DNA of 59,545 nucleotides, filler included. It is 5 parts of 5 records of this genome, joined end to end, with 100 filler letters (N's around TTAATTAATTAA, not from the genome) between each part and the next. Parts side by side here need not be neighbours in the genome. Positions count along the whole stretch, not along the records: positions 14,969 to 32,348 come from SRR31156797_5260; 4 more parts are not named here. One strand, given 5' to 3'. Shown here piece by piece: positions 14,614 through 54,042 of the stretch; position 1 is the first letter of the stretch, and each line of letters begins with the position of its first letter. Both the position numbers and the translations under genes were made by a program. The notes below the pieces were generated by a model that ran no database searches, was not told where the DNA came from, and was given only the letters and a program-made list of their open reading frames with translations.

Positions 14614-14811
14614 ATGCCATACGTTAATATTCGCATCACCAAAGAAGGCGCAACCGCGAACCAGAAGAAACAGCTCATCAAAGGTGTTACTGACCTACTG
14701 GCTGACGTGTTGGGGAAGAATCCGAAAACCACCTTTGTTATTATAGATGAGGTGGATACCGATAATTGGGGAATTGAGGGGGAAGTTGTTACTGACATTC
14801 GGAAAAAATGA
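14614..14811 (+). CDS. 4-oxalocrotonate tautomerase family protein
   Basis: Pro1 after Met (MPYVNIRIT), QKKQLIKGVTDLL, NWGIEG; 65 aa. Confidence 0.92.
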   Translation: MPYVNIRITKEGATANQKKQLIKGVTDLLADVLGKNPKTTFVIIDEVDTDNWGIEGEVVTDIRKK

Positions 14812-14868: not shown

Positions 14869-14968
14869 NNNNNNNNNNNNNNNNNNNNNNNNNNNNNNNN
14901 NNNNNNNNNNNNTTAATTAATTAANNNNNNNNNNNNNNNNNNNNNNNNNNNNNNNNNNNNNNNNNNNN
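14869..14968. other. artificial contig spacer
   Basis: N44-TTAATTAATTAA-N44 all-frame stop linker. Confidence 0.99.
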
Positions 14969-15253
14969 CAGATTTCTTTTCCCATGATCTGTGATCCAAA
15001 GCGAAAACTTTATAATGCTTATGGCCTCAAGCGGATGGGTGTTCTGGATTTTCTTTCACCCTCCCTGGCCATCAAAAGCCTGTCGGCCGTTGCCCAGGGG
15101 AATCTGGCGGGGTTGCCCGAAGGGGATGTGAAACAACTGGCGGGGGTGTTTATTATTAATTCCCAGGGCATCATTCAATATGAGCATCTTTCCACCGATC
15201 CTTCGGATTTTCCGCCTGTTGAAGATGTTCTGGAAGCGCTGAAACCATTTTAA
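14969..15253 (+). CDS. peroxiredoxin-like AhpC/TSA-family protein, C-terminal part (5' end lost at the contig edge)
   Basis: ICDPKRKLYNAYGL...GDVKQLAGVFIINSQGIIQYEH..DPSDFP is typical of AhpC/TSA_2-like C-termini; the active-site region is not in the window. Confidence 0.72.
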   Translation, partial: QISFPMICDPKRKLYNAYGLKRMGVLDFLSPSLAIKSLSAVAQGNLAGLPEGDVKQLAGVFIINSQGIIQYEHLSTDPSDFPPVEDVLEALKPF

Positions 15254-15286: not shown

Positions 15287-17527
15287 GTGAGTGAATGGCG
15301 GAAAACAGGTTGTGTATTGTGCGCCCAGAATTGCGGGCTTGAAGTTTTTGTGGAAAACAACCGCATCACAAAGGTTAAACCGGATCGGGACAATCCCCGG
15401 AGTCAGGGCTATGTCTGCCGCAAGGGCCTCAATATAATCCATCACCAATATCCGGAAGGTCGACTGACCCAACCGCTGAAGCGGGTGGGGAAAGGTTTTG
15501 AGCCCGTGGGCTGGGGTCAGGCCATGGGGGAAATATCGGATAAGATAAAAGCGTTGGTCGGTGAGCATGGCCCCCGCAGCCTGGCCTATATGGGGGGGAG
15601 CGCTCAGGGTGGACACTTCGAGGTGGCATTCGCATTGAGCCTTCTCCGCGCCATGGGCTCCCAGTACTATTACTCTTCCGCCGGGCAGGAATTCAGCGGT
15701 TCATGGTGGGTGTTCGGAAGGATGCTCGGAAAGCAGTACAATGTGGCCATCCCGGATGAGCACGGCGCCGAAATGCTGGTGGGGTGGGGCTGGAACGGTA
15801 TGATGAGCCACCAGATGCCACGTGCCCGAAAGGTGCTGACGGGGTTCAGTAAAGACCCCGAGCGTCTTTTTGTGGTGGTGGACCCCAGGAAAAGTGAAAC
15901 CGCCGCCATCGCCGATATTCACCTGGCGGTACGCCCCGGAACCGATGCGCTTCTGGTCAAGGCCATGATTGCGCTGATTCTTCATGAGGGTTGGGAAAAC
16001 TCGGATTATATGCACGACCACGTGGCCGGCTGGGAACAGGTTGCCCCGTGGTTTGAAGACTTTCATGTAAACGCCGCCCTGAAGGTCTGTGATCTGGAAT
16101 ATGCCCGGGTGAAGGAAGTATGCCGGCTCATGACCACAAAGCGATGGTGCCTTCATCCGGACCTGGGGATCTATATGGGGCGCAACAGTACGCTCAATTC
16201 CTATTTCTTAGGTATTCTGGGCGCCGTATGTGGTCTTTTCTGCGTCTCCGGCGGCAATGTCATTCCGGGCATGGTCATGCCCATGGGATTTCACGCGGAC
16301 GAGCGAAATCCCAAGATCTGGCGCACGGTCGCAACGGATATGCCCCCGGCCGCCGCCGGTTCTTTCCCCCCCAATGTGATGCCCGAAGAGATCCTTAACG
16401 ACCATCCCGACCGATTGCGGGCGGTGATGGTGAGCGCCTGCAATCCCCTTCGCTCCTACGCCGATACCAAAAGCTTTGAAGCGGCCTTCAAACAGCTGGA
16501 CCTCCTGGTGGTCAACGACATTGTCATGAGCGAAACGGCGAGGCTGGCACACTACGTGCTGCCCTGCCGCACCTTTTACGAATCCTGGGACGGCACCTTC
16601 TTCCCCTGGACCTACCCGGAGGTGTTTTTTCAGATGCGGGGACCCGTGGTGGAACCGGAAGGCCAATGCCTGGAAGCGGCCCAAATTTTTACCATTCTGG
16701 CCGACCGGCTGGGGCTTGTTCCCGAAATTCCGGACCATCTGCACCGGGCTGCCGGAGGGGACCGCCTGGCTTTCGGGGCAAAATTCATGCAATGGGCCGC
16801 ATCGGAGCCCCGGGCCATGAAAAGCATGCCCTTCGTGCTGGCCAAGACCCTGGGCCGGGTGTGGAACAGTGCCGCGCTTCCGGCTTTGTGGGGGATGTTG
16901 ATGACCGCACCGGAAACCTTTCGAAATAATGCCGCACGGGCAGGTTTTGAGCCGGGGATGGATCAGGGGGACCGTATTTTTCAGGCCCTCATGGATAACC
17001 CTCAGGGACTCTGGGTGGGTGAGGTGGATCCGGATGAAAATTTTTCCGGGGTTAAAACCGACTCCGGAAAAATTGAAGTTTACATTCCGGAGCTGGAGGC
17101 ATCCGCCGTCCATGTCAATGCGGAAGCGGAACAAAAACATCTGGCCCCATCCCATGAATTCCCCATGATCTTGAACGCCGGCAGGCACATGGATTATAAT
17201 GCCAATACCCTCATGCGAAACCCGGAGTGGAACCGGGGTAAACGGGCGTGTACCGTTGCAATCCATGCCGACGATGCAGCGGCACTGGACCTGCCGGACG
17301 GTCATCCGGTTCGGGTGGTGACCGAAGCCGGCAAGGCGGTGGGGGAGCTACAGGTTTCCGGGCAGGTGCGACAGGGAACCGTATTGATTCCCCACGGCTT
17401 CGGTCTCAACTATGAAGGAGAAGTTTACGGCATCAACGTCAACCATCTAACCAAAAATACCCACCGGGATCCGTTGGGCACGCCGTTGCACCGTTACGTG
17501 CCCTGCCGGCTGGAGAAGGCTGACTGA
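15287..17527 (+). CDS. molybdopterin-dependent oxidoreductase, DMSO reductase superfamily catalytic subunit
   Basis: GTG start after GGGAGG; [4Fe-4S] motif C9xxC12xxxC16...C44-R-K46; VVVDPRKSETA, VRPGTDA, DIVMSETARLAHYVLP; C-terminal molybdopterin-binding domain (ILNAGRH...IHADDAAAL...PHGFG). Confidence 0.93.
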   Translation: MSEWRKTGCVLCAQNCGLEVFVENNRITKVKPDRDNPRSQGYVCRKGLNIIHHQYPEGRLTQPLKRVGKGFEPVGWGQAMGEISDKIKALVGEHGPRSLAYMGGSAQGGHFEVAFALSLLRAMGSQYYYSSAGQEFSGSWWVFGRMLGKQYNVAIPDEHGAEMLVGWGWNGMMSHQMPRARKVLTGFSKDPERLFVVVDPRKSETAAIADIHLAVRPGTDALLVKAMIALILHEGWENSDYMHDHVAGWEQVAPWFEDFHVNAALKVCDLEYARVKEVCRLMTTKRWCLHPDLGIYMGRNSTLNSYFLGILGAVCGLFCVSGGNVIPGMVMPMGFHADERNPKIWRTVATDMPPAAAGSFPPNVMPEEILNDHPDRLRAVMVSACNPLRSYADTKSFEAAFKQLDLLVVNDIVMSETARLAHYVLPCRTFYESWDGTFFPWTYPEVFFQMRGPVVEPEGQCLEAAQIFTILADRLGLVPEIPDHLHRAAGGDRLAFGAKFMQWAASEPRAMKSMPFVLAKTLGRVWNSAALPALWGMLMTAPETFRNNAARAGFEPGMDQGDRIFQALMDNPQGLWVGEVDPDENFSGVKTDSGKIEVYIPELEASAVHVNAEAEQKHLAPSHEFPMILNAGRHMDYNANTLMRNPEWNRGKRACTVAIHADDAAALDLPDGHPVRVVTEAGKAVGELQVSGQVRQGTVLIPHGFGLNYEGEVYGINVNHLTKNTHRDPLGTPLHRYVPCRLEKAD

Positions 17528-17537
17528 AGTATAAGGC

Positions 17538-18305
17538 ATGGCACCCCTTTTCAATGGCACTGATTTTGATCTCATGATTCAAAAAAGCGACCCAAAGATC
17601 ATGATCGTGGAAGACGAAATTTCCGTTTCATTGGAATTACAGGAAATGTTAACGGAAAACGGTTACCTTGTGGCGGGCGTGGCGAGTTCGGGTGAAGAGG
17701 CCATTGTCATGGCGCGAAGTCTTAAGCCTGACTTGATCCTGATGGGCATCAAGCTGCCGGGGAAACTGGACGGTGTTGATGCCGCCGCAAGGATTCGTTC
17801 CCGTCTGAGCATACCCTCCGTTTTTGTAACCGGCCACGGTGAAAAGGAATTAGTGGACCGGGCTGTAAAAGCAGAGCCATTGGGTTATATTATGAAGCCC
17901 CTAAACAACATTCAGATTTTAGCCGCCATAAAAGTGGCCCTTGCCATAAAAATTCGAGAAGCGTTAAAAAGACCACCATACACGAGCATTCCTGCCGAAC
18001 TTATCGGATTGAGTGCCCAACAATTACGGGTGGCTGATATGGTCTGTGAAGGGAAAGATACTTCGGAAATTGCAAAAAACTTAGGCATCACAACAAATAC
18101 GGTCAACTGGCATAGAAAGAAAATCAGGAAAAGATTGGGAATCAATAATAAAAAAGTCGATTTAATGGTTGCCTTAAAATCATTAAATTCATTTTCACCC
18201 CCCGAAAAAGCATCGAAACATTACGCCGAGCCCCCCTCCGTGGCTGAATTCAAAAAAAATAGAAAATTTCCCTTTTGCGCATCCCTTTTTGCCAGAAAAA
18301 TATAG
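17538..18305 (+). CDS. response regulator, REC plus LuxR-type HTH, with the phosphoacceptor Asp replaced by Gly
   Basis: KIMIVEDE, PDLILMGIKLPG, FVTG, YIMKP; C-terminal LSAQQLRVADMVCEGKDTSEIAKNLGITTNTVNWHRKKIRKRLG; true start may be 17574. Confidence 0.88.
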   Translation: MAPLFNGTDFDLMIQKSDPKIMIVEDEISVSLELQEMLTENGYLVAGVASSGEEAIVMARSLKPDLILMGIKLPGKLDGVDAAARIRSRLSIPSVFVTGHGEKELVDRAVKAEPLGYIMKPLNNIQILAAIKVALAIKIREALKRPPYTSIPAELIGLSAQQLRVADMVCEGKDTSEIAKNLGITTNTVNWHRKKIRKRLGINNKKVDLMVALKSLNSFSPPEKASKHYAEPPSVAEFKKNRKFPFCASLFARKI

Positions 18306-32348: not shown

Positions 32349-32448
32349 NNNNNNNNNNNNNNNNNNNNNNNNNNNNNNNNNNNNNNNNNNNNTTAATTAA
32401 TTAANNNNNNNNNNNNNNNNNNNNNNNNNNNNNNNNNNNNNNNNNNNN
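32349..32448. other. artificial contig spacer
   Basis: N44-TTAATTAATTAA-N44. Confidence 0.99.
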
Positions 32449-44993: not shown

Positions 44994-45093
44994 NNNNNNN
45001 NNNNNNNNNNNNNNNNNNNNNNNNNNNNNNNNNNNNNTTAATTAATTAANNNNNNNNNNNNNNNNNNNNNNNNNNNNNNNNNNNNNNNNNNNN
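44994..45093. other. artificial contig spacer
   Basis: N44-TTAATTAATTAA-N44. Confidence 0.99.
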
Positions 45094-53942: not shown

Positions 53943-54042
53943 NNNNNNNNNNNNNNNNNNNNNNNNNNNNNNNNNNNNNNNNNNNNTTAATTAATTAANN
54001 NNNNNNNNNNNNNNNNNNNNNNNNNNNNNNNNNNNNNNNNNN
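53943..54042. other. artificial contig spacer
   Basis: N44-TTAATTAATTAA-N44. Confidence 0.99.

Follow-up and report, generated by a model that had tools for sequence, protein, structure and literature searches.

Which residue holds the metal in a molybdenum or tungsten enzyme whose usual ligand position is occupied by glutamate? The question is raised by one gene (15287..17527, plus strand) in a 59,545-nucleotide stretch of DNA, hereafter the window. The gene has a GTG start preceded by GGAGG and encodes a 746-residue catalytic subunit of the dimethyl sulfoxide (DMSO) reductase superfamily, or MopB. In this family the protein ligand to the metal is the basis of classification and a main determinant of chemistry. 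The available text of reviews from 2019 to 2026 gives Ser, Cys, Sec, Asp or no protein ligand as the only alternatives (PMC10100899, PMC13653126). By alignment, the window protein carries Glu135 in this slot and would fall outside that set. We think it probable, on balance, that Glu is a fifth type of protein ligand to Mo/W-bis-molybdopterin guanine dinucleotide (bis-MGD), used by a large, cross-phylum cytoplasmic branch that probably includes Rv0197 of Mycobacterium tuberculosis. This branch would have arisen, with at least two origins of Glu, within a group that has Asp as ligand but no relationship to NarG, and would combine a second sphere remodelled at Asp292 and Arg644 with a new oxygen-transfer reaction.

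Glutamate 135 in the ligand slot

As a MopB subunit, the window protein keeps both its [4Fe-4S] and its bis-MGD motifs intact. It matches the Pfam domains Molybdop_Fe4S4 (residues 3-55), Molybdopterin (59-473) and Molydop_binding (627-730), and has the four-domain MopB fold that includes the latter two. The FS0 [4Fe-4S] motif, C9-C12-C16-C44 plus K46, lies at 15311..15424 (plus strand), and the Glu135 codon, GAA, at 15689..15691 (plus strand). Both, together with G124, stand where a first-pass annotation of the DNA had placed them. Contacts to bis-MGD are kept at K46, G168/N170, D199-P-R, G218-x-D220, N386-P387, D411, E416, E432, G632, N640 and N719. The conservation of these residues and the cofactor genes adjoining family members suggest that the cofactor has been retained, and we predict that the protein binds Mo/W-bis-MGD. 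Superfamily members that lack the cofactor do exist (PMC10100899, in the part available), and Glu135 could be merely structural in a scaffold or electron conduit resembling NuoG, ActB or FhcB. With every bis-MGD-contact motif and domain IV conserved, and cofactor-biosynthesis genes flanking members, we regard this as very improbable. The first-pass annotation saw no twin-arginine translocation (Tat) signal; a Tat motif is likewise absent from all 417 of the 417 proteins of at least 660 residues, which supports a predicted soluble, cytoplasmic enzyme.

Known families do not accommodate the protein. Among the 25 NCBIfam matches listed of 26, none reached its cut-off, and the best model, Fdh-alpha, scored 225 bits against a cut-off of 666. 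The cytoplasmic formate dehydrogenases (FDHs; E. coli FdhF, 1aa6/1fdi; FdhF of the hydrogen-dependent CO2 reductase, HDCR, 7qv7; M. extorquens FDH1, 8j83/7vw6) are among the closest known systems, at 20-25% structural identity. They differ in having Sec or Cys followed by His where the Glu branch has Glu followed by Phe or Lys (E135-F136 in the window protein), and assignment to FdhF/FdhA was rejected. Nitrate reductases of the NapA/NasC type were rejected as well (E135 instead of Cys; scores of 92 bits with a cut-off of 904, and of 171 bits with a cut-off of 1100), as was acetylene hydratase (2e7z), in which Cys141 is the ligand and Asp13 is catalytic and essential; E135 and A13 replace them here. 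On the model for type II enzymes of the NarG/EbdA/PcrA kind the protein scored 101 against 985 bits, and no operon with beta and gamma subunits occurred in 160 loci. A Ser-ligated enzyme of the BisC/DmsA/TorA type would call for an invariant Ser, and the loop of the Glu-bearing proteins has none.

The first-pass annotation had put E135 in the ligand slot by eye, and profile methods agree. With the profile of our alignment A1, E135 coincided with the Cys or Sec ligand in all five of the PDB alignments listed. Those to 7qv7, 2e7z (Cys141), 9t1s (F420-dependent FDH, Sec) and 7bkb (FDH) were ungapped, and that to 2vpw (polysulfide reductase) had a one-residue insertion upstream of the ligand position. 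A hidden Markov model (HMM) built from family members only placed U140 of E. coli FdhF, C179 of NapA and C174 of PhsA, the metal ligands of these enzymes, all in the E135 column. In the structure model, E135 closes a short helix (131-135) ahead of a longer one (137-147); the FdhF ligand is similarly placed at the end of a short helix.

Several alignments weigh against this placement. Pairwise phmmer shifts Cys141 of acetylene hydratase by one residue, onto F136. In gapped alignments, hhalign puts the BisC Ser ligand on S130, and the NarG Asp ligand falls on S131; the DmsA Ser ligand falls in a gap, and the family HMM fails on the distant Ser and Asp enzymes too. By plain count, the ligands of NarG, DmsA and BisC follow the equivalent Gly by 10-12 residues (NarG Asp223 is 11 after Gly212). 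The register thus appears to hold exactly for the Cys/Sec enzymes nearest in structure and to be ambiguous for the remote Ser/Asp enzymes: alignment to the known enzymes held for FdhF, NapA and, by profile, acetylene hydratase, and was gapped for NarG, DmsA and BisC.

Glu135 is conserved across the homologues. It is present in all 121 close sequences (the query and 120 matches, 71-88% identity), in 118 of 118 new matches from the actinobacterial branch, in 101 of 101 from the mycobacterial branch and in 79 of 80 soil-metagenome loci, the 80th of which starts beyond the site. It is also the sole invariant residue of its loop. The serines that the first-pass annotation had named as alternative ligands are not conserved: among 51 Glu-bearing sequences, Ser occurs at position 130 in 16 (Asn in 25), at position 131 in 11 and at position 137 in 7. 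A diverse set was assembled from the 77 proteins of at least 660 residues among the 150 best 50%-identity representatives, plus the query. Across these 78 rows the ligand column holds E in 36, D in 36, C in 5 and a gap in 1, and restriction to Cys, Asp and Glu is what a ligand position should show.

The earlier description of the enzyme as an orphan has to be given up. In three protein searches, with 8000 candidates scored in each, 5800, 7941 and 8000 matches came back; these totals include remoter MopB proteins, and Glu was checked in the matches listed. The Glu branch is large and widespread, with members in several phyla, including Desulfobacterota, mycobacteria, Acinetobacter, Bradyrhizobium and streptomycetes. 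The absence of a characterized member, suspected at first pass, was borne out: no report of one, or of a Glu ligand, appeared in the PDB or in the literature searched, in which subscription journals were thinly covered.

Could Glu135 act from the second sphere instead? It might serve as a base that activates a bound water or hydroxide, at a metal lacking a protein ligand as in AioA. The side chain of Glu extends further than those of Cys and Asp, such that ligation would need either the helix to shift or the side chain to fold. Ligand-free sites are described for AioA and IdrA (PMC10100899, in the part available), and a conserved Glu is the base in xanthine oxidase (PMC13653126). However, the E135 column alternates among Cys, Asp and Glu only, FS0 has the four-Cys motif rather than an AioA-type [3Fe-4S] arrangement, and a separate conserved carboxylate, D292, could act as the base. 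We therefore find a second-sphere role unlikely, and judge with fair confidence that Glu135 binds Mo or W. Direct ligation and new chemistry are both predictions from the sequence, as they were at first pass. If correct, a Glu-ligated site adds a class to the family, and a single scaffold then offers a natural series of Cys, Asp and Glu sites in which to see how the ligand tunes Mo/W reactivity. The annotation of a very large family would also change, as listed members go by the name of formate dehydrogenase H or of assimilatory nitrate reductase and lack the ligands of those enzymes.

Lineage and second-sphere residues

The first-pass annotation had also proposed placing the clade in a superfamily tree. 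In a FastTree phylogeny of 100 rows, 89 rows form an Asp/Glu group (support 0.957), and nested in it is an all-Glu branch of 48 rows (0.997). A quick IQ-TREE run (LG+G4) on 50 of these rows, with the ligand column removed, recovered the Asp/Glu group with a Shimodaira-Hasegawa-like approximate likelihood ratio (SH-aLRT) of 99, a 21-row Glu branch with 91 and a 19-row core of that branch with 99. The branches of NapA and PhsA are flagged as long, composition bias is flagged too, and NarG is poorly aligned, so that the trees do not cover its position. The Glu branch lies inside an Asp/Glu group separate from FdhF and NapA. Three Glu rows sit outside the main Glu branch in the IQ-TREE phylogeny, and its starred branches force at least two changes. 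These three proteins (P0188, P0164 and P0170) have Arg or Lys at position 292, as in the Asp rows, which suggests separate Asp-to-Glu changes.

Residues around the ligand slot differ between the two types. Typical of the Glu branch are Q134 (35/42 rows), W141 (35/42), D/E292 (41/42) and R644 (37/42), with a variable position 13 (E in 12, A in 12 and S in 9 of 42). Asp rows mostly have E13 (29/38), R292 (22/38) and H644 (29/38). In the window protein, the second carboxylate, Asp292, is encoded at 16160..16162 (plus strand) and aligns with Gly296 of FdhF, the neighbors of which we take to be cofactor contacts. Arg644 (17216..17218, plus strand) lies in the domain IV cofactor loop. Apart from these substitutions, the uncharacterized Asp-type sisters resemble the Glu branch in size, motifs and cytoplasmic location, and share its supported group. 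The Asp/Glu group probably overlaps MopB_1 (cd02762) of CDD, to which the Asp-type sisters would belong.

Position 13 bears on a further possibility. The Glu-ligated enzyme could be a non-redox hydratase or isomerase that works in the manner of acetylene hydratase; this would account for the lack of an electron-transfer partner in most members. The window protein has Ala in the slot of the catalytic Asp13, though, and the Asp13Ala exchange abolishes acetylene hydratase activity (PMC12096430, in the part available). The variability of this position across the Glu branch and a dedicated Fe-S gene adjacent in 15 of 80 loci also argue against a hydratase, which we hold to be rather improbable for the Glu branch. 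Separately, the Asp rows (P0181-P0271, with L104 and L105) represent diverse, similar cytoplasmic enzymes, and those with Glu at the Asp13 slot are candidates for hydratase-like chemistry.

Possible reaction and genomic neighborhoods

For the reaction, we lean narrowly towards oxygen-atom transfer, in either direction, with a small organic molecule as substrate and a carboxylate as ligand to the Mo or W. The guide is analogy with the Asp-ligated type II enzymes NarG, EbdA, PcrA, SerA, DdhA and S25dA, whose ligand loop also carries a carboxylate and which perform oxygen-atom transfer and water-derived hydroxylation. They are distant in sequence (low in the match lists), multi-subunit and mostly exported, and have Asp rather than Glu; NarG also has a His-type FS0. 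Asp-ligated members include oxyanion or sulfoxide reductases, dimethyl sulfide dehydrogenase and hydroxylases (PMC10100899, Table 1, in the part available).

Under this proposal, the enzyme would be soluble and cytoplasmic, with Mo/W-bis-MGD, one proximal [4Fe-4S] cluster and the Glu135 carboxylate on the metal, in effect the Asp ligand of the sister lineages lengthened by one methylene. With an oxygen-donor ligand and an oxo/hydroxo site, an oxygen atom could go from water to substrate or the reverse as the metal runs through a two-electron Mo/W(IV)-(VI) cycle, and Asp292 might handle protons as a general acid/base. Electrons would travel by way of the pterin, Lys46 and FS0 to or from a soluble partner. 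That partner might be a 356-residue 2x[4Fe-4S] protein plus a flavoenzyme in one Desulfobacterota sub-branch, and general cellular carriers elsewhere. The substrate would be a small organic compound sensed by TetR, MarR or GlxA regulators.

Gene neighborhoods were compared in 80 Desulfobacterota loci (8 of them at least 80% identical to the query) and 80 soil-metagenome loci. The gene for the 356-residue protein, a candidate redox partner, is nearby in 21 of the Desulfobacterota loci, 15 times within 350 bp on the same strand. The first-pass annotation had called the enzyme stand-alone. No Fe-S subunit adjoins it downstream in the window, where the contig ends 318 bp upstream and only the downstream side could be judged; these Desulfobacterota relatives do not fit the description. 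The 356-residue protein itself (L009:4900-5970 and 20 other loci) has a C-terminal 2x[4Fe-4S] domain and, in addition, invariant CxCR, C, C and CxCCGxCC motifs, and its Pfam and PDB matches are limited to the ferredoxin part.

Some of the other neighbors hint at an organic substrate. In the Desulfobacterota loci we found old yellow enzyme-type flavoenzymes (15), GlxA/AraC regulators (14), TetR (13), MarR (7), acyl-CoA ligases (9), a small Rieske protein (6), and FmdE or FmdE-MoCF fusions (13). Three fusions of FmdE, a treble-clef zinc finger and MoCF_biosynth lie just downstream of the enzyme (L032:8254-9969, L039:8693-10444 and L045:8180-9979) and are possible cofactor-insertion helpers. In the soil loci, enoyl-CoA hydratase is directly upstream in 15, and TetR and MarR occur in 15 and 13. 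The Bradyrhizobium member belongs to a cluster for acyl-CoA catabolism that also contains TetR and an NADH:flavin oxidoreductase, and that of Tsukamurella adjoins TetR. The Acinetobacter member is found among nitrate-assimilation genes, between a MobA-like gene and moaA-moaE-moaC-moeA; those of Streptomyces and Moraxella stand alone. The enoyl-CoA hydratase, TetR and MarR neighbors, the Bradyrhizobium cluster and the induction of Rv0197 described below are our grounds for an organic substrate.

The Glu branch takes in proteins of Mycobacterium kansasii, M. decipiens, M. shinjukuense and other mycobacteria. Membership of M. tuberculosis Rv0197 was assessed by residue fingerprint. The four reference residues of Rv0197, as tabulated in the accessible part of PMC10916221, all occur at matching positions in five of eight mycobacterial proteins tested (from M. 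decipiens, M. shinjukuense and M. kansasii). The other three have three of the four, and three non-mycobacterial controls have none to two. Judged from this fingerprint in its relatives, Rv0197 is a probable Glu-branch orthologue, at the identity level of about 34% seen between branches, and the branch would then include a long-unexplained mycobacterial molybdoenzyme. Rv0197 is described, in the text available, as an "uncharacterized oxidoreductase" with a predicted molybdenum cofactor site (PMC2936551). In the available part of another study, p-hydroxybenzaldehyde induces its regulator gene Rv0196 16-fold and Rv0197 5-fold (PMC10470581).

The loci closest to the window point to a different role. 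Seven of the eight have a SelL-related AhpC/TSA gene directly upstream, and seven have rubrerythrin-like genes. All seven of these AhpC/TSA genes (L001, L002, L003, L005, L008, L023 and L025) carry an in-frame TGA in the motif RHFG-TGA-PF. The next two residues are F-C in L005 and L025 (UxxC) but F-A in the remaining five, and the products are probable selenoproteins. Upstream of the selenoprotein gene in L002 (4225-5253) is a gene for a 342-residue protein without a Pfam match, which by eye resembles the methionine-synthase catalytic domain of MetE; it also occurs in L005, L008, L023, L025 and L027. A Cys-rich protein of about 400 residues, again without a Pfam match, is encoded directly upstream of the enzyme in L006 (1623-2906) and L052 (4490-5701).

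The peroxiredoxin-like and rubrerythrin neighbors of the window's own sub-branch favor a reductive role in repair or detoxification. In one form, the enzyme would be a BisC-like cytoplasmic S-/N-oxide reductase, possibly with Ser130 as ligand. The hhalign result for BisC and the many members that seem to be single-gene and regulator-linked fit this, but position 130 is more often Asn than Ser, BisC lacks the FS0 motif, the window protein reaches 85 on the BisC model (cut-off 1018), and a reductase without a Ser ligand is already covered by the carboxylate-ligated enzyme we propose. We consider BisC-like function quite improbable. For the Glu-ligated enzyme, catabolic neighbors and aldehyde induction favor oxidation or hydroxylation, and water-dependent oxidation/hydroxylation feeding acyl-CoA catabolism seems slightly more likely than S-/N-oxide reduction.

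Other observations count against our proposal. No neighbor is universal; related genomes are among those counted, and the neighbor counts lack independence; and neither the 8 closest loci nor any of the 80 soil loci has the gene for the 356-residue Fe-S protein. The response to p-hydroxybenzaldehyde may be a general stress response, and the ligand role of Asp in the sister lineages is itself a prediction.

Window composition and adjacent genes

The window comprises five contigs joined by artificial N44-TTAATTAATTAA-N44 linkers at 14869..14968 (no strand), 32349-32448, 44994-45093 and 53943-54042. The enzyme gene is carried by contig 2 (14969-32348), and DNA to the left of the first linker belongs to another organism and is not part of its gene context. 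Contig 1 matches genome G001 at 98% identity; in G001 neither contig 2 nor an orthologue of the MopB gene was found; GC content is 32% in contig 4 and about 50% in the others. The window therefore mixes organisms.

The only gene upstream on contig 2 codes for an AhpC/TSA redox protein related to SelL and is present as its 3' half (14969..15253, plus strand), which is cut by the contig end and is probably co-transcribed with the MopB gene. Directly downstream, at 17538..18305 (plus strand), is a LuxR-type response regulator, which is not a recurrent neighbor in related loci; the genes beyond it are housekeeping genes. At the end of contig 1, and unrelated to the enzyme, a small tautomerase-family gene (14615-14811) is followed by a short repeat with many copies across G001.
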